From: a bacterium
GTDB lineage: Bacteria; Patescibacteriota; Minisyncoccia; JBDRLZ01
DNA length: 47,258 nt
Direction: 5' to 3'
NCBI GenBank assembly: GCA_043812555.1
Contig: JBDRLZ010000017.1
Span: forward strand, 1 to 47,258
The notes beneath the pieces are model-generated. The model searched no databases, was not told where the DNA came from, and worked only from the letters and a program-made list of their open reading frames with translations. A program made the position numbers and the translations under genes. Below, piece by piece: positions 6,012 through 45,814 of the stretch. Every line of letters begins with the position of its first letter. Within the stretch, counting starts at the first letter, position 1.

Positions 6012-6028
6012 AGCGAAAGGTTCTTATT

Positions 6029-6277: not shown

Positions 6278-6285
6278 TTACGCTT

Positions 6286-6333: not shown

Positions 6334-6399
6334 TGTTCTTGTTTTTTTAAAAATATTATGATAGTTTGAAAATAACTTTGAAACAGGAGGTTAGATAAA

Positions 6400-13215: not shown

Positions 13216-13534
13216 ATGCGCTTTGCGCGGTTTAATTCATGCTTTGCGCAGCGAGCAAAGTTTTAGACTACAAATTATTATTGCTTTTATAGTTATAGCT
13301 CTGGCAATTTATTTTCGCGTGCCAGCAATTAAAGCATTGGTTTTGGGCATGGCAATTATTATTGTTTTGAGCTTTGAGCTTGTTAATACAATGGCTGAAA
13401 GAATTATTGATTTGGTTGAGCCGCGTTGGCAGGATAATATCAGGGATATTAAAGATGTTTTAGCCGCGGCTGTTTTGCTCGCGGCTATTGGTTCTGTTAT
13501 AATAGGGCTAGTAATTTTTTTGCCCTATTTATAG
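13181..13534 (+). CDS. dgkA: diacylglycerol / undecaprenol kinase (DgkA family)
   Basis: 117 aa with three TM helices and the ELVNTMAERIIDLV motif. Confidence 0.7.
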   Translation: MINLSKFFKSLKCALRGLIHALRSEQSFRLQIIIAFIVIALAIYFRVPAIKALVLGMAIIIVLSFELVNTMAERIIDLVEPRWQDNIRDIKDVLAAAVLLAAIGSVIIGLVIFLPYL

Positions 13535-14318: not shown

Positions 14319-14982
14319 TTTAATTTTATTATCTTTAATTTTGCCAACAGCAACTGGCTATATTAATGACTTTGCCGGCATTTTAAGCAATGCTTCTTAC
14401 TTGGAACAGCAGATTATTGCTTTTGAGCAAGAGACTTCTAACGAAATAAGCATTGTTAGCGTCGAGAGTTTACAAGACGAGACAATAGAAGAATACGCTG
14501 TGCGCTTGTTTGAAAAATGGCAAATTGGCAAAGCAGACAAAGACAACGGCGTTTTAATTTTAATTGCGCCCAACGAGAAAGAGGTCAGAATTGAAGTCGG
14601 CTATGGCTTAGAAGGCGTTCTGCCCGACAGTTTAGCTAACTTAATTATTCAGAAAGAAATTTTGCCGGCTTTCAAAAAAGGGGATTATCAGCAAGGCGTT
14701 GAAGCTGGTTTGCAGGCAGTAATGCAGGCAATTAGAGGCGAATACCAAGCTGAGCAGAATATTGATTGGCAAAGTATTCTGATCAATATTTTTGTTTTTA
14801 TAATTTTTATTATTTTAATAATTTTTCTTTCGCGAAAAAATAAAGGGAAAAATAGTTGGCCTTGGTTCTTATTGGGTATGTTTTTCGGCCGCGGCTCTTC
14901 AGGTTCTTCAGGAAGCCGAAGCGGTTTTTCCGGTTTTAGCGGGGGATCTTCCGGCGGCGGCGGAGCATCAGGGAGGTGGTAA
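14296..14982 (+). CDS. TPM-domain protein (YgcG-like) with C-terminal TM helix and Gly/Ser-rich tail
   Basis: Has the GYINDFAGILS motif. It has the usual LemA-TPM gene pairing and a GSSGSSGSRSGFSGFSGGSSGGGG tail. Confidence 0.7.
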   Translation: MRHKLSSSLILLSLILPTATGYINDFAGILSNASYLEQQIIAFEQETSNEISIVSVESLQDETIEEYAVRLFEKWQIGKADKDNGVLILIAPNEKEVRIEVGYGLEGVLPDSLANLIIQKEILPAFKKGDYQQGVEAGLQAVMQAIRGEYQAEQNIDWQSILINIFVFIIFIILIIFLSRKNKGKNSWPWFLLGMFFGRGSSGSSGSRSGFSGFSGGSSGGGGASGRW

Positions 14983-14992
14983 AATCAAAAAT

Positions 14993-15021
14993 TTGACTTC
15001 AAATCAATTTTGAGGTATAAT
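14993..15021 (+). promoter_or_regulatory. consensus sigma-70-type promoter TTGACT-N17-TATAAT, 7 nt before the ATG of the toxin-like gene
   Basis: The -35 is at 14993-14998 and the -10 at 15016-15021. It belongs to a 32-nt repeat (30 of 32 identical) shared with 15553-15584. Confidence 0.6.
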
Positions 15022-15028
15022 AATTTTA

Positions 15029-15292
15029 ATGTCTGTTAAATTTTCTTCGCATGCTTTAAAACGAATCAAAGAACGGTTTATCGCGAAACAGACAATTTTA
15101 AACAGCCTTAACAATCCGGATAAATTAGAAAAATCTATCAAAGACCCGAATAGATTTTTAGTTAAAAAATTATATTTTAACAGGCATTTCCAAAAAGAGC
15201 ATTTGTTAATCATAATCTTTGAAGAAAACAAGAATATTAAAGAAATTGTGACGATTATTGATACTTCAAAAATTAATAAATATTTATCATGA
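15029..15292 (+). CDS. DUF4258-like putative toxin
   Basis: 87 aa with N-terminal FSSHALKRIKERFI resembling DUF4258. It overlaps the downstream DUF2283-like gene by 4 nt. Confidence 0.5.
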   Translation: MSVKFSSHALKRIKERFIAKQTILNSLNNPDKLEKSIKDPNRFLVKKLYFNRHFQKEHLLIIIFEENKNIKEIVTIIDTSKINKYLS

Positions 15293-25363: not shown

Positions 25364-26548
25364 GTGGCAAAACAAATTAAAACAAGAATAGCGCCGTCGC
25401 CAACCGGACCATTGCATCTTGGCACTGCCCGCACAGCGCTTTTTAACTATTTATATGCTCGGCAGAGCGGGGGAGCGTTTGTTTTAAGAATAGAAGATAC
25501 AGACAAAAACCGTTCTAAAACTAAATACGAAAAAGACATTAAAAATGGGCTAAAATGGCTTGGGCTAGATTGGGATGAAGAATACAAGCAAAGCGAACGC
25601 ACAAAAATTTATAAAAAATACTTAGAGCAATTATTAGAGCAGGGGAGTGCTTATAAGAAAGAGAATGCTATTTATTTTAAAACTGCATCTAAAAATTTGA
25701 GTTTTATAAAATTTAACGATTTAATCAGAGGTGAAATTAGTTTTGATTTAAATCTAATAGAAGACTTTGTGATTGCCAAAAATTTGCAAGAGCCGCTTTA
25801 TAATTTGGCTTGCGTTGTTGATGACCATGAAATGAGCATAACGCATATAATCCGCGGCGAAGACCATATTTCTAATACCCCAAGACAAATTTTAATTTAT
25901 CAAGCATTAAATTTGCAAATTCCGCAATTCGCACATTTACCCTTGATTTTAGGCTCAGACAGAAGCAAGCTATCAAAACGCCATGGCGCAACATCTTTAA
26001 CAGATTATCAAAAAGATTATTTGCCAGAAGCATTAATAAATTATATGGCTCTTTTGGGCTGGAATCAGGGAACAAAAAAAGAAATATTTTCTAAAAAAGA
26101 ACTAATCAAAGAATTTTCTTTAAACAGAGTTCAAAAAGCTGGCGCGGTTTTTGATATTAATCGACTCGATTGGATGAATAGCAAATACATTAAACAAAGT
26201 TCTCCAGAAAGACTTTCTAAATTAACAGGCTTGCCAAACAATATAATCTCTCTTGAGCAAACCAGAATTAAGCGTTTAAGCGAATTTAGAGAATTCACTA
26301 AATTTATTTATAAACTGCCGGATTATAAGTCAGAACTTCTTTTATATAAAAATATGACTAAAAAGCAAGCAGGGGACTGCTTAGAAAAAGCCATAAGAGG
26401 CGAGAGGCTGGAACATGAAGAACTATGGCCTCCCCGAGTCGCTTTAAGCGGTCAAAAAGGCAGCCCTGGATTTTATGAAATAGCCAAGGTCTTAGGAACA
26501 AAAGAGACTTTAAAAAGATTAAAAAATGCTCAAAAAAAGTTATTTTAA
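25364..26548 (+). CDS. gltX: glutamyl-tRNA synthetase, short form (GTG start)
   Basis: Has PSPTGPLHLGTARTALFNY (HIGH region) and KLSKRH (KMSKS). 394 aa, so the C-terminal anticodon-binding region is reduced. Confidence 0.85.
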   Translation: MAKQIKTRIAPSPTGPLHLGTARTALFNYLYARQSGGAFVLRIEDTDKNRSKTKYEKDIKNGLKWLGLDWDEEYKQSERTKIYKKYLEQLLEQGSAYKKENAIYFKTASKNLSFIKFNDLIRGEISFDLNLIEDFVIAKNLQEPLYNLACVVDDHEMSITHIIRGEDHISNTPRQILIYQALNLQIPQFAHLPLILGSDRSKLSKRHGATSLTDYQKDYLPEALINYMALLGWNQGTKKEIFSKKELIKEFSLNRVQKAGAVFDINRLDWMNSKYIKQSSPERLSKLTGLPNNIISLEQTRIKRLSEFREFTKFIYKLPDYKSELLLYKNMTKKQAGDCLEKAIRGERLEHEELWPPRVALSGQKGSPGFYEIAKVLGTKETLKRLKNAQKKLF

Positions 26549-26571
26549 AAAGCAGAGCTTATAGTTTTCCA

Positions 26572-26609
26572 CAACCAAGTCGTGAAATGGATATTGTGCG
26601 ACTCGGTTG
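26572..26609. terminator. 11-bp imperfect hairpin between convergent gltX and the Ada-like gene
   Basis: CAACCAAGTCG / CGACTCGGTTG with one mismatch and a 16-nt loop. Confidence 0.35.
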
Positions 26610-26666
26610 TATTCTTTCTGTGGATAAACTCCTCCCCTTTTCCACTCCCCCAGCCCCACTCTTGGC

Positions 26667-27020
26667 TTATTTATGCGAAATGCAAGAACAGGGCTGGTAA
26701 CCCTTTTCTTGGGCTTCTTTTTCTGATTTAAACCAAATTTCGTTCTCTTTTTTAATCTTTTTTGCCCAAGTACAGTCGGGGAGGTGATATTTATTTGAAT
26801 TTTTACTGCCAACAAAAATACCCTCTTTTTGTTCTGATATAGTCTCCCCTATTTCTGCCCTAAATATATTATTATCAATAATTTCTATTGGCGCTGATTT
26901 AGAACCAATATTATAAGATAATCTGCCCAAGCCAAAAGCAATTAAAGCAATTAAAATTACTCCAACGCACAAAACAATCTTATCTTGATTTTTTATAAAT
27001 AATTCTTTATACTTTAACAT
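26667..27020 (-). CDS. membrane-anchored protein with C-terminal Ada-like Cys-rich metal-binding motif
   Basis: Has a TM helix ([18 protein letters not shown]) and C-terminal [12 protein letters not shown]...[11 protein letters not shown] at 27020 is preferred, and it abuts the rpmA ATG at 27021. Confidence 0.5.
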
Positions 27021-30946: not shown

Positions 30947-31201
30947 TTATTTAGTTTTTTTGTTTCCCCCAATCTTCTTTGTCTTCGTGCTTAAAAAAGA
31001 ATCTTTTTCCCACCAATTAATTCCCATTGCTTTAGCTTTATCTACTCCAGCGATTAAAAGTCTTATCTTGATAGTCAATAAATCGACATCAGCCAGTTTA
31101 ATTTGAATATCGCCAACAATAACAATGCCTTTATCTAAAATTAGTGAAAGAACATCAGCTAGAGTATTGCCGACAGTTGATTTTACAATTGTTTTTGTCA
31201 T
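30947..31201 (-). CDS. gvpJ: gas vesicle protein GvpJ (GvpA/J/M family)
   Basis: Has [58 protein letters not shown]. The VDKAKxMGINWW block is characteristic of GvpJ. Confidence 0.8.
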   Translation of the reverse strand: MTKTIVKSTVGNTLADVLSLILDKGIVIVGDIQIKLADVDLLTIKIRLLIAGVDKAKAMGINWWEKDSFLSTKTKKIGGNKKTK

Positions 31202-31737
31202 CTTAATTGTCCTATTGGTCCTAAATCTAAATTCAAATCTTTTTCTTTAAGACCAAAGATTAATCTTAATTCTTCTAATTTGCTTTCTATTGCCTGCAGA
31301 TTTAATCCTAATTTTTCTATCTCTGTTTGGGTCAAATGCCCAGCCTGCACTCTTCTTGTTGCTTCTCTTTCTACTAAGTCAACAATCAGTTTGATTAGGG
31401 TTAAAACTAATTTAGCCAGACCTGATTCTGCTTGCCTAGGGGTGTCAGCATTAATCATTTGATTAATATGAGCTTGGGTTTTTTTAATTTGATTTTCTAA
31501 TTTTTTTAGATAGACTTTATCTCCTATTTCAGCTTGATTTATATCTCCAACTCTCGCGCCTTGCTGGGTTTCTAATCTTGACATAGAAATAAGGACAAGT
31601 TTCAACTGGATAGCCAAGAGATCCAAATCAGCTAGTCTGACTATTAAATCTCCCTGCACCACTGCTCCTTTGTCAATCAGCTTGTCCAAAGCATCAACCA
31701 AACCAGCATTTTTGTTGTAATTATTCGCTTCGCTCAT
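31198..31737 (-). CDS. gvpK: fusion of a GvpA/J/S-family domain (N-terminal) with GvpK (C-terminal)
   Basis: The N-terminus GLVDALDKLIDKGAVVQGDLIVRLADLDLLAIQLKLVLIS is a GvpA-family core. The C-terminus LAKLVLTLIKLIVDLVEREATRRVQAGHLTQTEIEKLGL is the GvpK pattern. It occupies the S-K position of the L-S-K-J gene order. Confidence 0.7.
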   Translation of the reverse strand: MSEANNYNKNAGLVDALDKLIDKGAVVQGDLIVRLADLDLLAIQLKLVLISMSRLETQQGARVGDINQAEIGDKVYLKKLENQIKKTQAHINQMINADTPRQAESGLAKLVLTLIKLIVDLVEREATRRVQAGHLTQTEIEKLGLNLQAIESKLEELRLIFGLKEKDLNLDLGPIGQLR

Positions 31738-32521
31738 AATTATGGTAACAAGGCCAAGGTCCGGTCATTTCAATGTCTAGTCCTTGAGAATTATATTTTT
31801 CTTTTATTTTCTTAATCTTATTTTGAAATCGGGCTAATTTTGCGTCTTTTAATAAATAAAAAGCATTTAAGATCATTTCCTCTGGCCGGCCAGTAAATTC
31901 TTTTGCCAAAAGCTTGCTTTTATTTTTATTCAAGGCTATTTGGCCTGCGCTCTCATATATATTTTTAATAATCCTATCTAATTTTTTATCTTTTATTTGT
32001 TCAATTATTGCATCAATCTCTTTTTGAACAAAGAAAGCCTCGCCTCTGGACATGGACTCGATTTTTTTGTTTTTGACTAAAACTGCCTTATTTTTCCGGG
32101 CAATGCTTTTTTTGAAAATATTCTCTTTTAAAAAAACTTTTACTCCCCATTCCTGTTTCCCTACTAAATTTTTTAAACTCTTTTTAAATTGCTCATAAAG
32201 CTTTTTTAAATTTTCTTCTAGGCTTTCTTTGGTTTTAAATATCACGCCGAATTGCATGGGAATTACTGGAATTCCTCTATTTTTGCCCATTGCTTGTTCA
32301 ACCACTTGCTCATGAATTTCTGCCTTTTTCGTAATCCACTTTAAATCTTCTTGGGCTTTTCTTTGAATCTTTTCTGAAGTAAATTTTTCTAAAGAAACCC
32401 GGCTTATCACTGCTTCCAAATCTTGATAAGGCAAAACTAGAATTCGTCCTCTATCAATGCCTTTTCCAAAAAATTCAGAACGGCCTTTTTGTCTAATGCA
32501 ATATAAGTATAAGCCCTTCAT
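31721..32521 (-). CDS. gvpL: gas vesicle protein GvpL/GvpF family (second copy)
   Basis: Has the MKGLYLYCI start, LPYQDLEAVISRV, and C-terminal LTGPWPCYHN. Confidence 0.75.
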   Translation of the reverse strand: MKGLYLYCIRQKGRSEFFGKGIDRGRILVLPYQDLEAVISRVSLEKFTSEKIQRKAQEDLKWITKKAEIHEQVVEQAMGKNRGIPVIPMQFGVIFKTKESLEENLKKLYEQFKKSLKNLVGKQEWGVKVFLKENIFKKSIARKNKAVLVKNKKIESMSRGEAFFVQKEIDAIIEQIKDKKLDRIIKNIYESAGQIALNKNKSKLLAKEFTGRPEEMILNAFYLLKDAKLARFQNKIKKIKEKYNSQGLDIEMTGPWPCYHNYERSE

Positions 32522-32524
32522 ATT

Positions 32525-32788
32525 TTATTCTTCTTTAACAAGGGCTGTATCTGTTCTTTTGCGCAGATCTATTCGCTCATATTTGAGCAAATCTCCTTTG
32601 ACATCTAAAAGAATCTCATAAGTACCTAAGACATCCATGCCATCAGGAATAGATTTTTTTTCAACAATCTCAATCACAGCTATCCAATTGGCTTTTTCTC
32701 TTCTCAAGCCAATGCCAGCCGGAGATTTAAATCCAGTTAATTCAACTAATTGTTTTTTTGCATTGTCAATAAGTTCTTTTGGCTTCAT
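32525..32788 (-). CDS. gvpO: gas vesicle protein GvpO
   Basis: AKKQLVELTGFK...NWIAVIEIVEKKSIPDGMDVLGTYEILLDVKGDLLKYERIDLRKR matches the GvpO pattern. Confidence 0.7.
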   Translation of the reverse strand: MKPKELIDNAKKQLVELTGFKSPAGIGLRREKANWIAVIEIVEKKSIPDGMDVLGTYEILLDVKGDLLKYERIDLRKRTDTALVKEE

Positions 32789-33006
32789 GATATTTGATTT
32801 AATTTTTCTAAAATAATTTTCTCTTTTTTTTGATATTCAGCTTGAGTAATTTGCTCTGCTTCTAAAGCCATCTGCAGATTAAATAATTCTGTTTGCAGCT
32901 TTTCTGGGGTGTCTTCTAATTCTTCTCGAGCCAGGTTATGTATTTTTTTAAAAATACCAACAAGTCCTTTAGCTGGGAGTAATAATAAATCATCTATTAA
33001 AAGCAT
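32785..33006 (-). CDS. gvpG: gas vesicle protein GvpG
   Basis: MLLIDDLLLLPAKGLVGIFKKI...ELFNLQMALEAEQITQAEYQKKEKIILEKL matches the GvpG pattern. Confidence 0.75.
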   Translation of the reverse strand: MLLIDDLLLLPAKGLVGIFKKIHNLAREELEDTPEKLQTELFNLQMALEAEQITQAEYQKKEKIILEKLNQIS

Positions 33007-33701
33007 AAGTTTACAAAATTATAAGGAGGGACAGGACCGACATAGATAAATTTTATTCTATTGTCATATTTTTTGCCTATTTCTTCTACTCTTTTATCAA
33101 ATTTTTTCTCTTTTTTCTTAGAGACCAAGAAGGCGCTATTGAAAATCATCGCATCACCAAAACAAGCTCTTGATTTAAAATCTACGGCTAATTTGTCTAA
33201 TGCCTGAATAATCTTTTGGGCCTCTTTTTCTCTTTTTTGTTCTAATGCTTTTCCCACTAACTCTCCCACAGCCGCGACTCTGAACTGGCTTGGATTTTTC
33301 CGGGCCTGATTTTTAGCAATTTGGATTTCTTTGTTTTCTCCTATTTCCTGAAAAATACTGGAGATGTCTCGCCACAATGCTTTAAGGCCTAATTCTACTT
33401 TGCCTTGTGTTTTTTTAAATGCTTCTAAAAGTTCTTTTCTTTTTGCTTTTAGTATTTTTTCTTTGATATCTTTCGTGCTTTTGGCCACTATTCCGAAACG
33501 AACCGGCAAAACATCATATCCTTGCTGCATTACTTTTTCAATAACTTTTTGATGAGCAATTAAATGTTCTCGGCTGAAACAAGGTTTTTTTGATCTCAAA
33601 TCTCGAACTACAACTGCCAGATTGCCTTGATTGATAGTGTAGGCTTGCTTAAACTTACACGGCCTTTTTTCTTTAATAATACAGTAGAGATATTTGCCCA
33701 T
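32997..33701 (-). CDS. gvpF: gas vesicle protein GvpF
   Basis: Has the MGKYLYCII start, DVLPVRFG, and C-terminal YVGPVPPYNF. Confidence 0.75.
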   Translation of the reverse strand: MGKYLYCIIKEKRPCKFKQAYTINQGNLAVVVRDLRSKKPCFSREHLIAHQKVIEKVMQQGYDVLPVRFGIVAKSTKDIKEKILKAKRKELLEAFKKTQGKVELGLKALWRDISSIFQEIGENKEIQIAKNQARKNPSQFRVAAVGELVGKALEQKREKEAQKIIQALDKLAVDFKSRACFGDAMIFNSAFLVSKKKEKKFDKRVEEIGKKYDNRIKFIYVGPVPPYNFVNLCF

Positions 33702-33704
33702 CTA

Positions 33705-34025
33705 TTATTTCTTGAGAATTCCTGGCAAAGGCATTCCTAACTTACCCAGATTTCTAATTATAGAAGCGAAAAGAGCGATTACGACTAAGACAAATACTCC
33801 GAAGACAATAAAAGCCAGGCCAGGCAAAGCTTGCCCGACTATTTCAATTACTGCAAAGCCAAGAATATATCCCAAGACCGGTCCTTTCATAAAATTACCG
33901 AGTTTCCTAAAATCAAAAACTTTTTTCGCAAAAGCACTGATAATCCCTAAAACAACATCAACTAGCAATAAAATTACAATAATCTGCATTTGGTAATTCC
34001 CAAAAAGATTAATTATTTCTTCCAT
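33705..34025 (-). CDS. three-TM small membrane protein inside the gvp cluster (weak holin-like resemblance)
   Basis: 106 aa. IIVILLLVDVVLGIISAFAKKVFDFRKLGNFMKG followed by two further TM helices loosely recalls the phage holin 4_1-type organisation. Confidence 0.4.
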   Translation of the reverse strand: MEEIINLFGNYQMQIIVILLLVDVVLGIISAFAKKVFDFRKLGNFMKGPVLGYILGFAVIEIVGQALPGLAFIVFGVFVLVVIALFASIIRNLGKLGMPLPGILKK

Positions 34026-34035
34026 ATTATTTTTG

Positions 34036-34446
34036 CTATTTTACTTTAATTCTATTGTTTAATTCGACCTTTATTAAGCAAATTGCTTTTTTAATTTGCC
34101 CAATGCCTTTGTTAATCCCCTGGTCAATAATCTGCCCTAAACTCAACTCTTCGCTTGGATTATCTTTGCCAGAATTATGTTTTGGCCCGCCTGCCGACGA
34201 GGCAGGCTTTTGTCTAGCTTTCTTCTTGGTTTTTTTCTTTAAAACTTTTGGCTTTTTCTCGTTTTGGCGAGTGACTTTATAGCAATCTCGGCCCTGCAAT
34301 TTTTCAATAAGGCCCTTTTTGTCCAAACCAGCGCAAATAAGGCGAGTATAATCATTACTAATTTTCATCTGCCTAGCAATCCATTGAACAGGAGCTTCTC
34401 CCTTCTTTTCTAAAATTTTTTCCAAAATCTCTTGTTCGGTGGTCAT
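34036..34446 (-). CDS. winged-helix DNA-binding protein with a lysine-rich tail, inside the gvp cluster
   Basis: Has a PVQWIARQMKISNDYTRLICAGLDKKGLIEKL wHTH-like segment and the basic tract KKPKVLKKKTKKKARQKP. Confidence 0.45.
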   Translation of the reverse strand: MTTEQEILEKILEKKGEAPVQWIARQMKISNDYTRLICAGLDKKGLIEKLQGRDCYKVTRQNEKKPKVLKKKTKKKARQKPASSAGGPKHNSGKDNPSEELSLGQIIDQGINKGIGQIKKAICLIKVELNNRIKVK

Positions 34447-34715
34447 GGTTTTTTAATTTTGTTTAAACCAGTTTTTACTCTCCAGCCAGCACTGGCTCGA
34501 AATTCTTTGCCACTTTTGGTCAAGCCTTTTATTTCTTTTTGATAACCACGTATTTCCTCACCTTTTTCTTCCATTTCCTGGACCACATCCAAAATACTAG
34601 CTACGCCTTTAAATAAACCCTCAAACAATCCACCAATTGCTTTGCCAGTGTTTTCTAGATTTTTTTTCAGCGTCCCTAAATCCTCTTTTGAAGTTTTCTT
34701 AATTTTTCTTGCCAT
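34443..34715 (-). CDS. 90-aa hypothetical protein, gvp-cluster member of unknown family
   Basis: The ORF is translationally coupled (4-nt overlap) to the downstream gene. No motif was recognised. Confidence 0.4.
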   Translation of the reverse strand: MARKIKKTSKEDLGTLKKNLENTGKAIGGLFEGLFKGVASILDVVQEMEEKGEEIRGYQKEIKGLTKSGKEFRASAGWRVKTGLNKIKKP

Positions 34716-34718
34716 AAT

Positions 34719-35042
34719 TTAATATCTTAATATTGGGTTTTTTTTCTTGTTTTTCGCTGTCTCTGAAGTGCCTCTTATTTGTTCAGCTGTTTTAGCAGTT
34801 CTCTCAAAAAGCTTGGTCATCTGTTTTTCAACATTTTGCAATCTCATTTGCAACTGCCTTCTTCTCCTTTTCAAACCTTTTAATTCCTTGTTTATTCTAT
34901 CTCTCTCATTGCGACGCATATACAAATCCAAAATAGCAGTAGTTGGCAGGTCTGGCTTACTACTTTTTCTAACTGTGCCAGTATATGTTCTTAAATCATG
35001 CAATCCGCTAAGATCTTGCAATGTTTTTATTGATGTTTTCAT
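34719..35042 (-). CDS. 107-aa coiled-coil protein immediately after gvpN (positional analogue of GvpV, unverified)
   Basis: LDLYMRRNERDRINKELKGLKRRRRQLQMRLQNVEKQM is a coiled coil. The gene follows gvpN, as gvpV does in some proteobacterial clusters. Confidence 0.4.
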   Translation of the reverse strand: MKTSIKTLQDLSGLHDLRTYTGTVRKSSKPDLPTTAILDLYMRRNERDRINKELKGLKRRRRQLQMRLQNVEKQMTKLFERTAKTAEQIRGTSETAKNKKKNPILRY

Positions 35043-35043
35043 C

Positions 35044-35976
35044 TTAGCAATATTTTTTAATTAATTTACGAACCATTTTTTCTATTTCTTTGCGTCTTGC
35101 TGACCAAGGACTTCGGGTAGTCTGCGAGACCAATATATCTTGAGCTAATTCTTGAAACACTGGATTACGAGAACAAAGCTCTCCCTTATTAACTATCAAA
35201 GCTTTAGCAAGAGCAATACAGCTTCGAACAGTTGGCGGAAACTCGCAAGGATTGCCTGTTCTCATGCCCCTGACAATATCAACAATTTTTTCTGCATCTT
35301 GCTTGGGCAAACCGGATTTTGCTTGAGTTATGGCTACTTCTGTTTCCCGATCAAAATACTCCAGATCCATTGTTATCATTCTATCGCGCAGGGCATCCTG
35401 GGCTTTATGAGTGCCAGCATATTCTTCAGGATTAGAAGTAAAAATAGCGCAAAAATTAGGATGAACTTTTAAGTAATAGTGCTCTTCTCCTTGTCTTTGC
35501 GTTGGCAAATCCATTACTTTTTCCTGCAAAATTGAAAGCAAAACATTATTTGCTTCAGGCCTTGATCTGGTGAATTCATCATAAATCAGGGCATAGCCAT
35601 TCTTGCAGGCAATGGTCAGACGATTATCCATCCAGTGTTTCTGCATATCTTGTTCTACTTTTAAAACACTAGCGATAAAATTATCCCTTAAATAACGGTA
35701 GCGATAGCCATGTTCTCCGCCAATTAAATCCGAGGTTTTATATTCCTCATCTCCATGCAAAAGCACAGCCGGTCTTTTGAGTTTGCCAGCTACATGTAAA
35801 GCTAGAGTGGTTTTGCCAGTGCCTGTTGGTCCTCTAAAATGAACTGGCATGCCAATTTTGAGATAATTGAGCGCTCGTTGTGTTAATTGTTTGATATAAG
35901 CCGTCTCAACAAAATCAGGCATTGGCCGAGGCCTAATAACAGCCTGTTCTTCTTCTGAAGATAGATAATAAGACAT
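35044..35976 (-). CDS. gvpN: gas vesicle AAA+ ATPase GvpN
   Basis: Has Walker A GPTGTGKTT, Walker B LIYDEF and a CbbQ/NirQ/GvpN-like layout. 310 aa. Confidence 0.85.
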   Translation of the reverse strand: MSYYLSSEEEQAVIRPRPMPDFVETAYIKQLTQRALNYLKIGMPVHFRGPTGTGKTTLALHVAGKLKRPAVLLHGDEEYKTSDLIGGEHGYRYRYLRDNFIASVLKVEQDMQKHWMDNRLTIACKNGYALIYDEFTRSRPEANNVLLSILQEKVMDLPTQRQGEEHYYLKVHPNFCAIFTSNPEEYAGTHKAQDALRDRMITMDLEYFDRETEVAITQAKSGLPKQDAEKIVDIVRGMRTGNPCEFPPTVRSCIALAKALIVNKGELCSRNPVFQELAQDILVSQTTRSPWSARRKEIEKMVRKLIKKYC

Positions 35977-39548: not shown

Positions 39549-39995
39549 ATGAAAACCCTAGTTATCAACAGAAGAGCGCGCTATGATTATGAGATTTTTG
39601 AAACCTATGAAGCAGGCTTGGTTTTGTTTGGCCATGAAGTCAAAGCAATAAAAACAGGCAAAGCAAGTTTAAAAAGCAGTTTTGTCAGCCTTAAAAACAG
39701 CGAGCTTTTCTTGACCAATGCCTATATTGCGCCGTATCAGCCAAAAAATACGCCCAAAGATTATGACCCGCAAAGATCAAGAAAGCTGCTTTTAAACAAG
39801 CACGAGATAAGCTCTTTAATCGGCAAATTAAAGCAAAAAGGCTTGACATTAATAGCAATTAGATTATATAATAAAAAAGGCAAAATTAAACTCAATTTCG
39901 GCCTGGCCAAAGGCAAAAGAAAAATTGATAAAAGAGAAAAAATTAAACAAAGAGAGTTTAAAAGGCAAAAAGAACGATTACTAAAGGGCTTGTAA
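39549..39995 (+). CDS. smpB: SsrA-binding protein SmpB
   Basis: Has NRRARYDYEIFETYEAGLVLFGHEVKAIK and a basic C-terminal tail. Confidence 0.9.
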   Translation: MKTLVINRRARYDYEIFETYEAGLVLFGHEVKAIKTGKASLKSSFVSLKNSELFLTNAYIAPYQPKNTPKDYDPQRSRKLLLNKHEISSLIGKLKQKGLTLIAIRLYNKKGKIKLNFGLAKGKRKIDKREKIKQREFKRQKERLLKGL

Positions 39996-40214
39996 AAGAA
40001 TCGACAAAAAGTTTTTTTCAAAATATGCAAGTCGAGCAAAGCTAGTATAACTCGTAAATCTATCTAGCAAATCTAATAAGTGCAGATCAAACAGTAAACT
40101 ATCCTCGAGCTTACGCTTACGCGTACGCTTAAACAAATAGTTGTTCATTAAATAAACTTGTCGAAGTGTTTTAAAAAATCTTTTTAGACGAGGGTGCAAT
40201 TCCCTCCAAGTCCA
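39986..40214 (+). ncRNA. ssrA: transfer-messenger RNA (tmRNA, ssrA), unusually short at about 229 nt
   Basis: The 5' GGGCTTG pairs with the 3' CAAGTCC, giving a G3:U70 wobble (the Ala identity element). The 5' AATCGAC motif is present. The P2 helix is AAAAAG-T-TTTTTT / AAAAAA-T-CTTTTT. The T arm is GAGGG-TGCAATT-CCCTC and the discriminator is A. The tag frame GCA at 40067 to TAA at 40130 encodes ANLISADQTVNYPRAYAYAYA. Confidence 0.7.
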
Positions 40215-40216
40215 CT

Positions 40217-40711
40217 ATCATATACAGAAGAATCAACAATAGAATATTTGCAAAACAAGTTCGCCTAATTGACGAAGTCGGAAAACAGCGAGGCATTGTT
40301 TCAATTCAAGAAGCATTAAGCATTGCCCAAGAGAGCGGGCTTGATTTGGTTGAAGTGGCTCAAAAAGCTAATCCGCCTGTTTGCCGAATAATGGATTACG
40401 GCAAATATAAATATCGAGAAGTCAAAAATCAGAAACAAAAAATAAAAAACAAAAAAATCAAAAGCATTAGAATCAGGTTAGCAACGAGCGAACATGATAT
40501 CCAGACAAAAATTAAAAATGCCCACAGATTTTTAAAAAAAGGACATAAGGTCAGGGTTGAAATTCAATTAAGGGGCCGGGAAAAAGCTCATTATGATTTG
40601 GCTCGAGAAAGATTGCAGGAATTTATTAAACAAATCGACGAAAAAGTTAAGATTGATCAATTTATTAAAAAGTCAATGCGAGGGCTAGATGTAATTGTAT
40701 GCCGAGAGTAA
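40217..40711 (+). CDS. infC: translation initiation factor IF-3 with a non-AUG start (ATC 40217, ATA 40220 or ATT 40199)
   Basis: The frame is open from 40175. It reads [61 protein letters not shown], which is canonical IF-3. The ORF track captures only the part from an internal TTG codon at 40346. Confidence 0.8.
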
Positions 40712-41475: not shown

Positions 41476-42561
41476 TTATCTTCGCCTTTTTTTGCGGCTC
41501 TCTTCTTCGTCGTCGTCAGTTTTTGCTGGCGCTGACGGCGCTGATTCGCGGCGTTGTTTTATAACAGTTCGCGAACTCGAAGAAGATGCTTTTTGCGCTG
41601 GCGCTGTTTTGCGCTCGGGCTGGACAATACGCACTCGCGAAACACTAGTTTTAATTACTGGCTGTGGCTGATAAGAAGCCTTTGGGCGAGTTATGTCTAC
41701 TCGGCCTCGCGATGCTTCTGGCCGACGGCGTTGGGTTCCAGTGTATTGCACTTGTTCTCGCGATCTTGGCAATTCTCGAACAATAACCGGCATTCGATCG
41801 TCATGATAATGACGAATATGCACTACTCTGTCGGGCCGCCAATGATAGCGATAAACTGGATATGTTCGCACGCGAAAAGCCGCATGCCAGCCAATATACC
41901 AATCGCTATGCCACCAGCCATCATAAACTATATACTCGTATGGTCTAACCGAACTATAGATTGGACCGCGATAATAGTAGTAATAAACCGTTGGTTCTTT
42001 AATTGGCAAATATGCATATTGTGTAATTACGCGAACCTCCGGCTTATAGCGCAAACTTTCCAGCTCGACAAACCGAATATCTAATTTTCTGTTGCTGTCA
42101 GCAATCACATGAATCTCAACTATGCCGTCAGCAATGTAGTTAGCGGCCAAATAAAGCGTTTGCCGTTCTTGGTCTGCTGGCAATTCAAAAGTAATGCCAG
42201 TATCTTGTTCTTGAACAACAAATACTTTGCCTGTTCCGCGATAAGCAATTTGGATTGCCAAAGAGCTGACATTTTTATCAATTTCTTTAAATTGATAAAT
42301 CGCAACTGCCATTGCATTTTCTTCAAAAGACTCTAAGCAAATGCCGTTTTCAAAAATTGCGCTGTCAGTTATTTCTGCTTTGCCGCCAATTGGTCGGAAC
42401 TCATCTGTTTCTCTGCCAAGCCGGCGTTCGCGAGCAAGAAGAGTCTGGCGCTCATAATCATAAACTCGGCCATGCGCCATTTGCATCAGAATCACAAAGA
42501 AGAAAAACATAAGAGCTACCCAGAGCCATAAAAAAATTCTATGCCAAAAAAGATTACGCAT
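41476..42561 (-). CDS. membrane-anchored hypothetical protein with an aromatic/Arg-rich region and a basic Ser/Arg tail
   Basis: ATG at 42561 lies 8 nt after AAGGAGG. It has an N-terminal TM helix, a YYYYYRGPIYSS...WWHSDWYIGWH segment and a C-terminal DDDEEESRKKRRR. It is visibly more G+C-rich than its neighbours. Confidence 0.5.
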   Translation of the reverse strand: MRNLFWHRIFLWLWVALMFFFFVILMQMAHGRVYDYERQTLLARERRLGRETDEFRPIGGKAEITDSAIFENGICLESFEENAMAVAIYQFKEIDKNVSSLAIQIAYRGTGKVFVVQEQDTGITFELPADQERQTLYLAANYIADGIVEIHVIADSNRKLDIRFVELESLRYKPEVRVITQYAYLPIKEPTVYYYYYRGPIYSSVRPYEYIVYDGWWHSDWYIGWHAAFRVRTYPVYRYHWRPDRVVHIRHYHDDRMPVIVRELPRSREQVQYTGTQRRRPEASRGRVDITRPKASYQPQPVIKTSVSRVRIVQPERKTAPAQKASSSSSRTVIKQRRESAPSAPAKTDDDEEESRKKRRR

Positions 42562-42580
42562 TTTTGGCACCTCCTTATTT

Positions 42581-42643
42581 ATTTAGTTTTCAAACTTTAA
42601 TTAAAAGATATCAAAAAAATTAAGTTTTGTCAAGTGGACGATG
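42581..42643. repeat. 63-nt perfect direct repeat, copy 1 (includes a 9-nt fragment of the tRNA-Val 3' end)
   Basis: Identical to 45114-45176 when read base by base. It continues imperfectly through the SD region (42571-42580). Confidence 0.95.
42605..42633 (-). promoter_or_regulatory. promoter-like TTGACA-N17-TATCTT within repeat copy 1, upstream of the 361-aa gene
   Basis: Same sequence as 45138-45166. Confidence 0.4.
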
Positions 42644-43808
42644 TATTTTTTGTCAAAATAATAAGAGGAACAAACATTTCTTCTTGACTCACCCCGCCAT
42701 GGCACGCCTTAAATTGACTCGCCATTGCCGGCTCTCCTGGTATTTGATCCTGGATAATATAATTTTTTTTCATTATAAGCACATAGTCCCCAATCCGGTC
42801 TAAAAATTTATTATCTTCCTTAAACAAACCAAACCAACCATCCTTGACCAGTTCATGGCTTTTATAAAGCCAACAAAAATTGTTTAAATACTGCTTTATA
42901 TAATGTTCAAATTCTTTGGTTCTATCTGGCTTTATGTAACAATAAGCCACTCGCGCTTCTCCACACAATGGGGCAATCATCATCTTGGTTAGTTCTGGGT
43001 GATCATCCAATTCTATTATTTCTGATTGATTAAAATCAATCAGACCATGGTCAGCAGTAATAATTAAAGCGGCATCGATTTTATCCATTAAATTTATAAA
43101 TTTCCCCAAATAACGATCAATCTCAATAAAATGTTCTAATGTTTTTTTTGATCGGGTGCCATATTTATGACAAACAGCATCAAAAGCTTGCCAATATGCA
43201 TAAATATATTTTCTCCTATTGCTAATTTTAGTAGCTCTTTGAATTTGGCTAAACAGGCCTTGTAAATTTTTAAAAGTATAGAGCGTGGCTCCTTTTGTTA
43301 TTGCAGACGAAAATTGAGAATGGGCATAATTTTCAGGATATATGATGTAAGAATCAATTTTTGTTCTGGTGAAAATATTCTTTGTATCAAAAAAATCTTT
43401 AATTTCTAGACCATATTTATCCAGTGGAATTTTTCCACTTCTCGTAGTGAATTGGATGAGTTCTGTGGCCATTCCTATCTCTTTTAAATACATGCGCCAA
43501 CCTGTTATCGCGTGCTGATTAGGCGCAACCCCAGTAATAAAGCTGGTGATGGCTGTCGCTGTAGTGGCTAAAAAAACAGATGTTAATTTTTTTCTCAGAT
43601 TCTTACTCATCAAGCTATTTTTGCCCGCGTTTAGCAAATAATTATAGCCTAGGCCATCAATAACAAATAAAATAATATTTTTGTTTTTTAGCAGTTTTTG
43701 GTGGCCCAAAATATCCAACTCATTGTAGGGCGAGGGAATGCCTAATGCTTGCTGGATAGAGCTCATTAAATTTATAATACTCTGGTTATAATCTGGTTTT
43801 ATTATCAT
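42630..43808 (-). CDS. alkaline-phosphatase-superfamily enzyme (nucleotide pyrophosphatase/phosphodiesterase-like)
   Basis: Has FVIDGLGYNYL (metal-binding Asp), TTATAITSFITG (Thr/Ser nucleophile region) and ITADHG. No TM segment. Confidence 0.6.
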   Translation of the reverse strand: MIIKPDYNQSIINLMSSIQQALGIPSPYNELDILGHQKLLKNKNIILFVIDGLGYNYLLNAGKNSLMSKNLRKKLTSVFLATTATAITSFITGVAPNQHAITGWRMYLKEIGMATELIQFTTRSGKIPLDKYGLEIKDFFDTKNIFTRTKIDSYIIYPENYAHSQFSSAITKGATLYTFKNLQGLFSQIQRATKISNRRKYIYAYWQAFDAVCHKYGTRSKKTLEHFIEIDRYLGKFINLMDKIDAALIITADHGLIDFNQSEIIELDDHPELTKMMIAPLCGEARVAYCYIKPDRTKEFEHYIKQYLNNFCWLYKSHELVKDGWFGLFKEDNKFLDRIGDYVLIMKKNYIIQDQIPGEPAMASQFKACHGGVSQEEMFVPLIILTKNTSST

Positions 43809-43845
43809 GAATATAGATAAAAAATATAGATAAAAAAGGGCAACT

Positions 43846-44268
43846 TTATTGCCCCTGCTGGAAGACTTGATTTTTTATTTTTTCTAAAATCATCGTTGTG
43901 CTTTGTTCCGCAAAACAAGGAAGTCTAATAATTTTACCCTTAAACCCCTTGTTTTTCAAAGCTTTTTCTAATTTTACAATGTCGAATTTTTGATCAAATC
44001 CCAGAACTAATATATCGGGATTAATATCTAAAATTGTTTTGTATTTATCGCCATTTGGGCCGATAAATGCTTTATCAACGGGCTTAAGCGCTTCAACTAA
44101 TTCCACTCTTTCCTCCTGGGAATTAATTGGAATGCGTTTCTCCTCCTCACAAACCTTGTCACAAGAAACAAGGACTATCAGCTCGTCCCCAAGACTTTTC
44201 GCTTTCTGCAAAAAATGTAAATGACCAATGTGGATAATATCAAAGACTCCCGTAGCTAAAATTTTCAT
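43846..44268 (-). CDS. cytidylyltransferase-family nucleotidyltransferase (TagD/RibL-like, HxGH)
   Basis: MKILATGVFDIIHIGHLHFLQKAKSLGDELIVLVSCD. 140 aa. Confidence 0.7.
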   Translation of the reverse strand: MKILATGVFDIIHIGHLHFLQKAKSLGDELIVLVSCDKVCEEEKRIPINSQEERVELVEALKPVDKAFIGPNGDKYKTILDINPDILVLGFDQKFDIVKLEKALKNKGFKGKIIRLPCFAEQSTTMILEKIKNQVFQQGQ

Positions 44269-44271
44269 TGG

Positions 44272-45096
44272 TTACCTCCTTGCTCCCATTTGACGAAAGA
44301 CTTCTATTTGTTTTCCATGAAGACGCACAATATGCCAAAGTAAATCAAAAAGCGTATTAAATCCCAAGATGTTTCTTACAAATCGTTTCTTTACCTTGTG
44401 TGAATATGTGAAAGAATACGATTCAATGGAAAAATCAGGGAATATCAACAACTGAATAAAATTTTCCGAAGGCAATTTATATGCAACACTAAAATTAAGT
44501 GGATTTGAATCGTTAATCGTGTCAATAAATTTCATATAATCTGTTTCTGAAATACTCGAATTAGTATTTGTGTAGATATGCCAGTCTGTTATATTGCTTA
44601 CAGACAAAATTTCTTCTCTCAAATTCAGAAAAAATGGCAATTCGTTCAAATTACTAATGACACTGTTTATGCGTACTTTTTCATGTATGCCATATCTTTT
44701 TAAAGTCAAAAAAATGTGATCGGGATAAAAAACATTTTTTTGCTTTCGCTCAACAGCACTTTTATGCATTGGGTCAATGGATATTACAAGGGTTTCAATG
44801 TAATCATTCAAGTAACAATGACGGGGCGCTATATCATTCCCGTGAGTTAATAAATATCTTACAAAAAACTTTTCTGATAGTCTGTAAAGAATTGTTTCTA
44901 GTCTATCATGCAAAAGCGGTTCACCTCCGCCAACAAAACATTGTTTGACATTGATCTCTTGCAAATAATCAATAAGATGCGACTCCAGATCTAAATATTT
45001 TACTTTATTCCTGCTTTTTTGAAAGCAGCCTTCACAGACCAAATCACAATGTTTGCCTACAAGCATGATGCCGATATCAAATATTATCTCGTCCAT
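44272..45096 (-). CDS. small radical SAM enzyme (viperin/MoaA-like core)
   Basis: Has CDLVCEGC (CxxxCxxC), GGGEPLL and RINSVIS blocks. ATG at 45096 lies 8 nt after AAGGAG. The TTG at 45126 in the ORF track lies inside the repeat. Confidence 0.7.
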   Translation of the reverse strand: MDEIIFDIGIMLVGKHCDLVCEGCFQKSRNKVKYLDLESHLIDYLQEINVKQCFVGGGEPLLHDRLETILYRLSEKFFVRYLLTHGNDIAPRHCYLNDYIETLVISIDPMHKSAVERKQKNVFYPDHIFLTLKRYGIHEKVRINSVISNLNELPFFLNLREEILSVSNITDWHIYTNTNSSISETDYMKFIDTINDSNPLNFSVAYKLPSENFIQLLIFPDFSIESYSFTYSHKVKKRFVRNILGFNTLFDLLWHIVRLHGKQIEVFRQMGARR

Positions 45097-45113
45097 ATCA
45101 CGATCTCCTTTAT

Positions 45114-45176
45114 ATTTAGTTTTCAAACTTTAATTAAAAGATATCAAAAAAATTAAGTTTTGTCAAGTGGACGATG
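45114..45176. repeat. 63-nt perfect direct repeat, copy 2 (overlaps the genuine tRNA-Val 3' end)
   Basis: Identical to 42581-42643. Confidence 0.95.
45138..45166 (-). promoter_or_regulatory. promoter-like TTGACA-N17-TATCTT immediately downstream of tRNA-Val, upstream of the radical SAM gene
   Basis: The -35 is at 45161-45166 and the -10 at 45138-45143. Confidence 0.4.
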
Positions 45177-45240
45177 CAGGACTTGAACCTGCGGCCTTTC
45201 GGATGTGAACCGAACGCTCTAGCCGCTGAGCTAATCGTCC
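45168..45240 (-). tRNA. tRNA-Val (anticodon CAC)
   Basis: The reverse complement is GGACGATTAGCTCAGCGGCTAGAGCGTTCGGTTCACATCCGAAAGGCCGCAGGTTCAAGTCCTGCATCGTCCA. The acceptor stem is a perfect 7 bp, the anticodon loop is TTCACAT and the T loop is TTCAAGT. Confidence 0.9.
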
Positions 45241-45241
45241 T

Positions 45242-45814
45242 TTATTCAATTCCAACTCTGTCCAGCAAAATCTGCTTCGGCCCCTCGAGCATCTCCAAGA
45301 CAAATTTGTCAAACATATTTTTGCGGTATCTAAACTCGCTTGAATCCATAATAACATAATCAATTTCTTTGCCAACCTCGGCTTCCAAATTCTTGAGCAA
45401 AGTTTCTAGTTTTCTCTTGTGAATAACCTCGCCAACCATAAAAAGATCAACCCGCGTATTATCAGTATTAACAAAAACGCCGCTTAAAATTATCAACTTT
45501 AGTTTGCCTATCTTTTTAAGCTGTTTTAAAATCTTTTCTTTGGCAACCGGCGTTGAACGCAGAACCAAGTTTTTAAGTTCGTTATAAAAATCAAAGTCCG
45601 GGTTAATAACAAAAGCCTTGTTGCGGTAATTAACAATCTTAATAGCTTTCAGCTTGTCAAGTTCGCGCCGGGCGGCAAAATAATCAACCTTGGCTCTTTC
45701 AGAAACCGCTTTAACCCGAAAGCCATTTTCAGGATTGCGAAACATAAGCTTCAAGACTTTGGCTCTTGTTTTGGAATTAAATAATTCTTCAAGTATCTCT
45801 GGCATTGTTGTCAT
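45242..45814 (-). CDS. winged-helix transcriptional-regulator-like protein
   Basis: The N-terminal LFNSKTRAKVLKLMFRNPENGFRVKAVSERAKVDYFAARRELDKL is ArsR/wHTH-like. The stop lies 1 nt from the tRNA-Val 5' end. Confidence 0.5.
   Translation of the reverse strand: MTTMPEILEELFNSKTRAKVLKLMFRNPENGFRVKAVSERAKVDYFAARRELDKLKAIKIVNYRNKAFVINPDFDFYNELKNLVLRSTPVAKEKILKQLKKIGKLKLIILSGVFVNTDNTRVDLFMVGEVIHKRKLETLLKNLEAEVGKEIDYVIMDSSEFRYRKNMFDKFVLEMLEGPKQILLDRVGIE

Follow-up and report, generated by a model that had tools for sequence, protein, structure and literature searches.

The 47,258-nt contig JBDRLZ010000017.1 (NCBI GenBank assembly GCA_043812555.1), from an uncultured, Parcubacteria-type bacterium of the Patescibacteriota (Minisyncoccia; JBDRLZ01) and hereafter called the window, contains a three-gene cassette immediately downstream of a tRNA-Val(CAC) gene, enclosed by two identical copies, R1 and R2, of a 64-nt segment. 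The cassette encodes a small radical S-adenosylmethionine (SAM) enzyme, a nucleotidyltransferase with an HxGH motif, and a protein of the alkaline phosphatase (AP) superfamily. All features are on the minus strand, in the order 190-amino-acid (aa) gene, tRNA-Val, R1, radical SAM gene, nucleotidyltransferase gene, AP gene, R2, and a 361-aa gene that the cassette separates from the tRNA (Table 1). The three open reading frames (ORFs) had been recognized in a preliminary description made from the sequence alone, and their motifs and families (radical SAM, HxGH, and Phosphodiest/AP superfamily) agree with the ORF list and with Pfam and NCBIfam. Loci from other genomes are denoted by L numbers.

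Table 1. Positions of the cassette, its flanking features, and the repeat brackets around related gene units at other loci.
Feature	Position	Strand	Remarks
190-aa gene upstream of tRNA-Val	45242-45814	minus	Conserved neighbor, synteny anchor
tRNA-Val(CAC)	45167-45240 (ARAGORN); 45168-45240 (Rfam RF00005, 70.9 bits)	minus	
Repeat copy R1	45113-45176	minus	64 nt, tRNA-proximal; exact-repeat search
R1 promoter	-35 TTGACA 45166-45161; -10 TATCTT 45143-45138	minus	17-nt spacer with TG; short 5' untranslated region
Orphan radical SAM enzyme	44272-45096	minus	274 aa; CxxxCxxC (C17/C21/C24), GGGEPLL, no auxiliary Cys cluster
RibL-like HxGH nucleotidyltransferase	43846-44268	minus	140 aa; PF01467, 77.5 bits
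Terminator-like hairpin and T-run	43836-43856	minus	Between the RibL-like and AP genes
Soluble AP-superfamily (NPP/PglZ-like) phosphodiesterase	42630-43808	minus	392 aa; PF01663, 83.1 bits (cut-off 23)
Repeat copy R2	42580-42643	minus	64 nt, identical to R1; exact-repeat search
R2 promoter	-35 42633-42628; -10 42610-42605	minus	Upstream of the displaced 361-aa gene
Displaced 361-aa gene	41476-42561	minus	N-terminal transmembrane segment, Y/R/P-rich C-terminus, no Pfam family
L001 bracket (trio; Parcubacteria GW2011_GWA2_43_9b)	6954-7142 / 9966-10156		193 nt, 88.6% identical; same layout in L002-L006
L039 bracket (trio)	3-112 / 3057-3166		112 nt, 85% identical; -10 box and first codons of downstream gene
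L007 bracket (hicBA, pair, and murB)	7118-7270 / 10282-10436		156 nt, 81% identical; TTGACA and ~45 codons of downstream gene

The duplicated segment and the empty site

A repeat search of the window returned one exact direct repeat, 64 nt long, with 2533 nt from start to start. Each half of it occurs twice in the 47-kb window even when three mismatches are tolerated, where shuffled sequences are expected to give none. The copies had been reported as 63 nt; their identity stands, and the length is corrected by one nucleotide. The reported overlap of one copy with the tRNA-Val(CAC) 3' end, and the tRNA fragment in the other, are both there: the last 9–10 nt of the tRNA (CATCGTCCA(C)) fall within R1, and an orphan copy of them occupies 42634/5–42643 inside R2. 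Most of the repeat is of another kind. Promoter scanning placed TTGACA-17-TATCTT with a TG-extended −10 element in each copy, in agreement with the earlier claim that a promoter had been duplicated, and this putative promoter abuts the tRNA, the first base of the promoter segment being 1 nt past its end. The same promoter-bearing segment now precedes two non-homologous transcription units, R1 standing ahead of the radical SAM gene and R2 ahead of the 361-aa gene. In essence, the identity block appears to be the predicted promoter and 5' untranslated region (UTR) of the displaced 361-aa gene, with the tRNA contributing 9–10 of the 64 nt.

The cassette fits tightly between the copies. Just beyond the exact repeat lies the Shine–Dalgarno (SD) sequence of the radical SAM gene, AAGGAG (45110–45105), and the start codon follows 8 nt after this duplicated SD. 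Past the 64 nt, the tRNA-side copy continues as TAAAGGAG and the other as AATAAGGAGG; the shared SD region that had been proposed is therefore real in that AAGGAG is common to both, but one indel puts the copies out of register. At the opposite edge, R2 provides the AP gene with its final four codons and its TGA stop (42630–42643), with the stop overlapping the −35 hexamer. The AP protein loses homology to its counterpart in L037 (84%) at 7 codons from the stop, and R2 begins after a further 16 nt without a match. Base composition carries no mark of foreignness, the GC fraction being 0.32–0.35 in the cassette and 0.32–0.36 in most flanks.

We used the 190-aa gene as the synteny anchor to compare 20 metagenomic and 6 genomic related loci. 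In most of those scanned for tRNAs, tRNA-Val(CAC) lies a few nucleotides downstream of this gene. Two of the three closest relatives, L012 and L013, in which the 190-aa neighbor is 83% identical, have tRNA-Val, a single R-like segment (~90% identical), and then a homologue of the 361-aa gene (L012 2509–3699, 64% amino-acid identity). By DNA alignment, L012 2410–2508 corresponds to window positions 45105–45203 and L012 2437–3495 to 41608–42643, leaving the L012 flanks collinear with the window, the 190-aa gene and tRNA on one side and the 361-aa gene on the other. Because the 72 nt at L012 2437–2508 align with both window copies, the duplicated target can be placed at 64–72 nt, from 9–10 nt inside the tRNA to the SD. 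None of the three cassette genes is present in any of the 26 loci. In the remaining close relative, L011 (84%), tRNA-Val and R are followed by a different 114-aa ORF, and to judge from these alignments the slot behind the tRNA-adjacent promoter is variable.

The R segment differs by 8–11% among relatives and by 0% between the two window copies, so the event was recent unless the copies have been homogenized. The preliminary description had proposed a recent insertion and suggested a search for an empty tRNA-Val site; L012 and L013 provide that site, and the copies in the window are identical. From these comparisons, a three-gene insertion of ~2.47 kb with duplication of its target is very probably a real event.

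The empty-site relatives contain a further rearrangement. In L012 (2262–2446), and also in L013, a window-type tRNA-Val(CAC) is split after nucleotide 37 by a 113-nt insert; the canonical tRNA intron position is 37/38. The insert has 10-nt imperfect inverted ends (CCTGCCCGCC and GGCAGGCGGG) around a second, complete, and different tRNA-Val(CAC) (ARAGORN, 2317–2389). It is either a tiny insertion, similar to a miniature inverted-repeat transposable element, that brought its own replacement tRNA or a nested intron-like arrangement.

Brackets at other loci and the route of insertion

The preliminary description had also proposed a check on whether the three families are found together elsewhere. 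The trio does recur in the same order (L001–L006, L034–L036, and L039), and three further sites are bracketed by direct repeats (Table 1). In L007, where the bracketed unit consists of hicBA, the radical SAM/nucleotidyltransferase pair, and murB, there is an additional inner pair of 30 nt that is promoter-like. According to a tRNA scan, no tRNA gene adjoins the L001, L039, or L007 brackets; the sole tRNA found near them is a tRNA-His in L001, ~1.2 kb upstream with two genes between. Since these repeats are imperfect and the L001 layout recurs in several independent assemblies, they are not assembly-graph collapses. On their sequences, promoter-region brackets look like a recurrent mode of gene-unit addition in these genomes.

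L001 also contains a leader-like element of ~75–190 nt in three copies (6954–7142, 9966–10156, and 12927–13001, the third partial) that share the core GGCTGTGGATAATTCTGTCGGCAA...CTTGACA...GGAGATGAT. A GC-rich hairpin with a T-run follows two of the three copies, and each copy is upstream of a radical SAM-containing unit; the element could be a previously unrecognized cis-regulatory leader common to radical SAM operons. Rfam returned no known RNA family in this leader repeat, nor in the repeat or cassette of the window. In the same locus, a 113-nt direct repeat (95.6% identical; 13242–13354 and 14964–15076) surrounds an unrelated gene pair encoding radical SAM/SPASM and tRNA_edit proteins, so brackets at promoter regions extend beyond the cassette family.

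We interpret the insertion in the window as promoter capture by target duplication rather than an integrase event at a tRNA attachment (att) site, with the tRNA involved only through the promoter that abuts it. Since the duplication took in the whole putative sigma-70-type promoter and the 5'UTR as far as the SD, the displaced 361-aa gene retains its own promoter and the cassette receives a copy. Whether this took place by a recombinase-free mechanism based on homology or replication is, in our estimate, an even call. Along one route, a circular molecule composed of R plus the cassette would have integrated by a single Campbell-type crossover with the chromosomal R; along the other, a replication template switch or a tandem-duplication event would have given the same product. 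In such a circle, a single R would close the AP ORF at its 3' end and at the same time supply the radical SAM gene with its promoter and SD, making a self-consistent unit, and recombination of R1 with R2 would exactly regenerate an empty site of the L012 type. The data accommodate either variant. Several points count against this account: the circular R-plus-cassette intermediate is hypothetical; the repeats at other loci are only 81–89% identical, which calls for old events or donor-derived copies; and part of the L001 repeat is the leader of the cassette itself rather than target, so not every bracket need share one history.

The preliminary description regarded the repeats as the classic footprint of site-specific insertion at a tRNA 3' end. 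If so, the 64-nt copies would be the attL and attR of a once larger element whose integrase was lost or acted in trans. A direct repeat that spans a tRNA 3' end and brackets foreign genes, the relatives with an empty site, and the rearrangements at tRNA-Val (a different gene in L011 and the 113-nt insert with its own tRNA-Val in L012/L013), which mark the locus as a hot spot, would all be expected from such an event. However, the duplicated part of the tRNA is only 9–10 nt, while the block runs 54–62 nt downstream through the promoter to the SD; the cassette edges are a ribosome-binding site and the last codons of an ORF, which leaves no non-coding att arms; and the same cassette family is bracketed by local sequence where no tRNA adjoins. 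The earlier statement that the window has no integrase was confirmed, in that a Pfam scan found no integrase, transposase, or recombinase family among 33 window ORFs (the cassette genes, their flanks, every ORF upstream of the cassette region with 170 aa or more, and two shorter ORFs). We therefore do not retain the footprint interpretation and consider integrase-mediated integration very unlikely. An assembly artefact would be another way to obtain the arrangement, with a chromosome that reads tRNA-R-361-aa gene and a cassette from another molecule or strain threaded into it through the shared 64-mer. The complete identity and sharp ends of the copies weigh against a genuine insertion here, since an assembler threading a shared 64-mer would yield the same, and 64 nt is within the range of common assembler k-mers. 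Even so, the AP-to-R junction with its 9–10-nt tRNA fragment must exist in some molecule and itself requires a duplication, a circle of 2.5 kb that lacks a replication gene could not be maintained, and imperfect-repeat brackets are present in independent assemblies of other genomes (L001–L006, L007, and L039). This possibility appears slighter still than the integrase.

Two other candidates were discarded. Xer/dif-type integration, as in integrative mobile elements exploiting Xer (IMEX), does not suit R, which is beside tRNA-Val in all relatives rather than being a unique dif site, and the probable replication terminus is ~17 kb away. At the right junction, the microhomology TTGACAAAA does not coincide with the joint and by itself has no explanatory value.

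Promoter capture of this kind has partial precedents. Small islands that have no integrase but lie between long, imperfect direct repeats are able to excise and integrate by means of host functions, as described for the H47 island of E. coli (PMC3191183). Our cassette resembles H47 in its small gene set without a recombinase of its own, its long direct repeats, and an excision that would restore the site; it differs in that H47 mobility was demonstrated experimentally and its att sites are widely distributed, whereas the repeats here copy local targets and mobility is deduced. Promoter reuse is widespread among prokaryotes, and the putative mobile promoters of Nijveen, Matus-Garcia, and van Passel (PMC3575422) likewise place an identical promoter segment ahead of two unrelated units; here, the duplication is tied to a datable insertion by comparison with an empty site, and the pattern recurs for a cassette family. 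Integrative islands that target tRNA genes share the direct repeat including a tRNA 3' end around acquired genes and the empty site in relatives, but here 9–10 nt are tRNA and the rest is promoter and 5'UTR, an integrase was not found among the ORFs scanned, and the family also occupies non-tRNA sites.

The radical SAM/RibL-like pair and its possible functions

The nucleotidyltransferase had been labeled TagD-like and thereby CTP-using, an assignment that our comparisons overturn. It scored 63.6 bits against the NCBIfam TagD model (TIGR01518, cut-off 165.4) and 89.7 bits against rfaE_dom_II (TIGR02199, domain II of HldE; cut-off 181.5), reaching neither cut-off. The best match in the PDB was 3GLV from Thermoplasma (120 bits, ~50% identity), compared with 57 bits for TagD (1COZ). 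A search of 5.8 billion proteins returned first a few clusters from the candidate phyla radiation (CPR; 55–73% identical) and then Thermoplasmata/Methanomassiliicoccales proteins (46–55%) annotated by NCBI or JGI as FAD synthase or FAD synthetase. Two of these archaeal homologues that we looked up (P0310 and P0369) are encoded between ribB, for dihydroxybutanone phosphate synthase, and two genes of the dimethylribityllumazine (DMRL)/lumazine-synthase family, i.e., in riboflavin operons. The protein has the HIGH motif, and its closest non-CPR relatives are RibL proteins. On these relationships, the family is a predicted archaeal-type FAD synthetase, RibL. In IMG/VR, it matched nothing beyond generic HxGH relatives, whose identity over the N-terminus did not exceed 48%.

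The archaeal FAD synthetase RibL (M. jannaschii MJ1179 type) is a flavin mononucleotide (FMN) adenylyltransferase that converts FMN and ATP to flavin adenine dinucleotide (FAD) and pyrophosphate. Both it and the CPR protein are small (140–150 aa), stand-alone HxGH enzymes; the CPR protein is 46–55% identical to Thermoplasmata and Methanomassiliicoccales members and has 3GLV as its best solved relative. The two groups differ in context. Two Thermoplasmata/Methanomassiliicoccales members are in ribB-ribL-ribH-ribC operons, whereas at the loci inspected the CPR gene is never in a riboflavin operon and is always just downstream of the orphan radical SAM gene.

The radical SAM protein is harder to place. 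CDLVCEGC and GGGEPLL are invariant in 11 of 11 family members, yet the protein scores 25.8 bits against Pfam Radical_SAM, under the 29.5-bit cut-off. Its best NCBIfam match is viperin_w_prok (NF038283), at 41.9 bits against a cut-off of 180, and the PADLOC pVip model gives 52 bits (E 1.4e-14). The viperin hidden Markov model (HMM) alignments cover at most residues 14–202, ending at 195–202 of 274, and leave the C-terminal 70–80 residues unmatched; searched as a profile against PDB sequences, the family scores 33 bits to MoaA and 24–30 bits to viperin. The AlphaFold2 model of the enzyme (pLDDT 89.5) gave Foldseek TMq values of 0.55–0.62 to BlsE, SuiB, AbmM, and fungal viperin-like enzymes. In this predicted model, the C-terminal ~80 aa form a beta3-alpha extension which, when modeled alone, had no Foldseek match with E < 0.3; a flavin- or riboflavin-kinase-like barrel, considered for this region, was dropped on the same result. 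The family is small and isolated, comprising 11 clusters at 90% identity and four representatives at 50% in 1.84 billion proteins, with a drop in score from 310 to 78 bits before the next-nearest proteins, which are sub-threshold viperin/MoaA-like. No member was found in GTDB species representatives or in IMG/VR viral contigs.

The resemblance to viperin and MoaA put forward in the preliminary description thus holds loosely: the motifs are there, while the viperin scores are far below cut-off, the C-terminus is unmatched, and MoaA scores as well. We describe the enzyme as one predicted to have, loosely, a viperin/MoaA-like scaffold outside every named family. Enzymes on the scaffold of viperin, MoaA, QueE, BlsE, and AbmM act on nucleotides or nucleoside sugars; BlsE and AbmM belong to nucleoside-antibiotic biosynthesis (blasticidin S and albomycin), and viperin/pVip makes 3'-deoxy-3',4'-didehydro-nucleoside triphosphates (NTPs) and protects against viruses. 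With viperin/pVip, the window enzyme has in common a length of ~270 aa, a single cluster, CxxxCxxC and GGEP motifs, a partial TIM barrel, a TM-score of ~0.6 to fungal viperin-like structures, and viperin models as the best-scoring ones. Unlike viperin, it has no counterpart, by HMM or structural match, of the conserved C-terminal extension that closes the NTP site, and where a nucleotide kinase partner or a defense island is typical of viperin/pVip, it has a RibL-like partner and murB synteny.

The AP protein is of the nucleotide pyrophosphatase/phosphodiesterase (NPP) type. Its alignment to ENPP4/ENPP5 retains DG...TT...TG..H, D..CHKYG, and ADHG, so that the Thr nucleophile and the metal ligands are intact. 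It shares with ENPP4/5-like and PglZ-type enzymes the Pfam Phosphodiest match, the Thr nucleophile, and both metal-site motifs. It differs from NPP-type enzymes in being cytoplasmic, with neither membrane anchor nor signal peptide as read from the sequence, in scoring 28 bits to solved NPPs, and in belonging to a large, uncharacterized family (1678 matches in CPR, DPANN, and others). Its closest homologue (84%, L037/L038) stands without the radical SAM/RibL-like pair. In the window, a terminator-like hairpin separates it from the RibL-like gene (Table 1), and by eye a GC-rich hairpin is found at the equivalent place in L039; these elements suggest separate or attenuated transcription units for the pair and the AP gene. 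The AP gene is a loosely attached third gene. Elsewhere, L042, L043, and L044 contain at 4534–6401 a 1.87-kb module of an XRE-type helix–turn–helix (HTH) protein (68 aa) and an AP-family protein (384 aa), which is 99.9–100% identical in three genomic contexts and ends in ~139-nt inverted repeats (89% identical). Given this identity across contexts, the AP family moves among CPR genomes as an independent mobile module as well.

The pair itself is constant. Directly behind the radical SAM gene comes a RibL-like gene, both in the window and at 20 of the 20 further loci inspected; the L008 contig breaks off within the gene at this position, which was not typed. In the two-gene clade (L007, L010, L031/L032, and L033), the RibL-like gene runs into a convergent murB, with an overlap of 4 or 8 nt. 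These five loci represent four distinct places, as L032 repeats L031, and the neighbors comprise murB with one or more of mreB, mreC, mreD, PBP2, and murA. MurB is an FAD enzyme. All Parcubacteria examined by Nelson and Stegen (PMC4508563) lacked riboflavin synthesis and ribK/ribL/ribF, yet had the flavoenzymes MurB and TrxB.

We tentatively propose, at somewhat less than even probability, that the cassette is a flavin-nucleotide module with the radical SAM/RibL-like pair at its core and the NPP-like enzyme loosely attached. FAD or an analogue would be formed by the RibL-like enzyme through adenylylation of FMN or of a closely related phospho-ribityl or phospho-alditol compound; the radical SAM partner would carry out a radical modification of that nucleotide substrate or product; and the NPP-like enzyme would cleave the dinucleotide pyrophosphate (FAD to FMN and AMP) in salvage or turnover. 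Such a module would supply flavoenzymes such as MurB in organisms reported to lack ribF/ribK/ribL. As a whole, a promoter-capturing insertion combined with a flavin-nucleotide function is our best explanation, and we judge it evenly poised between right and wrong.

A number of observations weigh against a flavin function. No riboflavin kinase, flavin transporter, or rib gene was found near any pair inspected; Pfam scans of ten unannotated pair neighbors returned nothing relevant, the only informative match being a weak MreD at 20.7 bits, under the 24-bit cut-off. We know of no flavin reaction for which a radical SAM enzyme of the viperin/MoaA-like kind is required. QSTT, as in TagD and HldE, takes the place of the archaeal GTRKII in the C-terminal phosphate-binding motif of the CPR clade, and the CPR RibL-like proteins carry a clade-specific SCDxxC (VSCDxxC); the substrate specificity of the clade may therefore have shifted from that of archaeal RibL. 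The murB synteny could reflect a cell-wall function or shared ancestry rather than FAD supply. Finally, only ~10 clusters carry the pair, so it is not a general CPR answer to flavin supply.

The preliminary description had seen in the cassette either a surface phospho-modification pathway or an anti-phage module, and both deserve comparison with the flavin-nucleotide module. For the former, an alditol or sugar phosphate would be CDP- or ADP-activated in the manner of TagD or HldE domain II, modified by the radical SAM enzyme, and trimmed or transferred by the AP protein for a surface polymer. The QSTT motif resembles TagD/HldE and not archaeal RibL, the pair sits beside murB, mreB, mreC, mreD, PBP2, and murA in four distinct loci, the closest radical SAM folds include BlsE and AbmM, and the best NCBIfam matches of the nucleotidyltransferase are rfaE_dom_II and TagD in a search that returned no RibL-specific model. 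Both of these matches are, however, far under their cut-offs, and the similarity to RibL (3GLV and the archaeal proteins) is about twice that to TagD. Moreover, the pair is not accompanied by any gene for a glycosyl- or phosphotransferase, a flippase, or polymer synthesis, and the sequence of the AP protein shows neither membrane anchor nor signal peptide. We regard an envelope pathway as unlikely.

The anti-phage proposal has fared less well and is now the weaker reading of the two. On this account, the cassette would be a mobile defense islet in which the radical SAM enzyme makes a toxic or chain-terminating nucleotide analogue that its partners process or detoxify. Viperin models are the top HMMs of the radical SAM enzyme, the nearest sequences outside its family are sub-threshold viperin-like proteins, and the cassette in the window is an accessory, recent acquisition. 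In L007–L009 the pair is preceded by hicBA, with AbiEii ~7 kb away on L007, and the AP family combines a faint PglZ similarity with its mobile HTH-plus-AP module. Against this stand the large shortfall from the viperin cut-off (41.9 of 180 bits) with 70–80 C-terminal residues unmatched, a MoaA similarity at least equal to that of viperin on PDB sequences, and TM-scores of only ~0.6. There is no kinase partner but an obligate link to a RibL homologue; synteny with the essential murB is conserved at four distinct loci, unlike in defense islands; and the radical SAM family was not found in IMG/VR viral contigs. A PADLOC scan, as the preliminary description had advised, did give weak matches to pVip and PglZ, but it lent no system-level support, and the other two proteins had no system-level match. 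A defense role consequently seems to us quite improbable.

Other features of the window and wider meaning

The window is otherwise ordinary patescibacterial housekeeping sequence, with DnaB, DnaK, aminoacyl-tRNA synthetases, Mur ligase, TGT, and Pol X. The 190-aa protein matches the PADLOC phage-defense candidate PDC-M05A at 74 bits; given its adjacency to tRNA-Val(CAC) in most related loci scanned, the gene has more the look of a housekeeping gene. Elsewhere in the window, smpB is followed directly by a tmRNA gene (Rfam RF00023, 73 bits, 39986–40217; both within 39549–40217) that ARAGORN did not call. A gas-vesicle cluster on the minus strand (31198–35976) encodes a GvpK/GvpA-like protein, two GvpL/GvpF proteins, and an AAA_5 (GvpN-like) ATPase. 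Near 26 kb (~26000–26700), the cumulative GC skew reaches its maximum and genes on the plus strand to the left converge with genes on the minus strand to the right, which suggests a replication terminus inside the window. At the left end (1–1889), a TrxB-like Pyr_redox_2 gene, of an FAD enzyme family, precedes a 356-aa ORF with two stretches on the 508-position Pfam profile of the NiFe-hydrogenase large subunit, the best of which covers positions 1–74 only.

Some parts of the cassette belong to already known kinds, namely promoter-capturing recombinase-free islets and radical SAM/nucleotidyltransferase pairs; its unknown core is an orphan radical SAM enzyme tied to a RibL homologue. We found no paper linking a radical SAM enzyme to RibL, describing viperin with a cytidylyltransferase partner, or reporting islands of this cassette type in Patescibacteria. 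Under the labels "TagD-like" and "viperin-like," both corrected here, the cassette would have been filed as a teichoic-acid or defense module. The more far-reaching possibility, that the pair is an unrecognized route to FAD or a modified dinucleotide in CPR bacteria and spreads without a recombinase by duplicating a promoter-bearing target of 60–190 bp, is in our view a long shot.

Together, these findings describe a clean, datable gene gain in a CPR genome for which the filled and empty sites are both in hand. By copying the resident promoter, the insertion is predicted to leave neither the new genes nor the displaced gene without expression, and the bracket pattern at three other sites suggests that tiny, regulator-poor genomes regularly acquire genes without dedicated recombinases. 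The flavin cofactor supply of Parcubacteria was flagged as an open problem in 2015 (PMC4508563). A radical SAM enzyme without near relatives, coupled to a protein closely homologous to the archaeal FAD synthetase and often adjacent to murB, is a pair for which we found no describing paper; while its rarity bars a general answer, it offers a testable lead on how some of these organisms may obtain their flavins.

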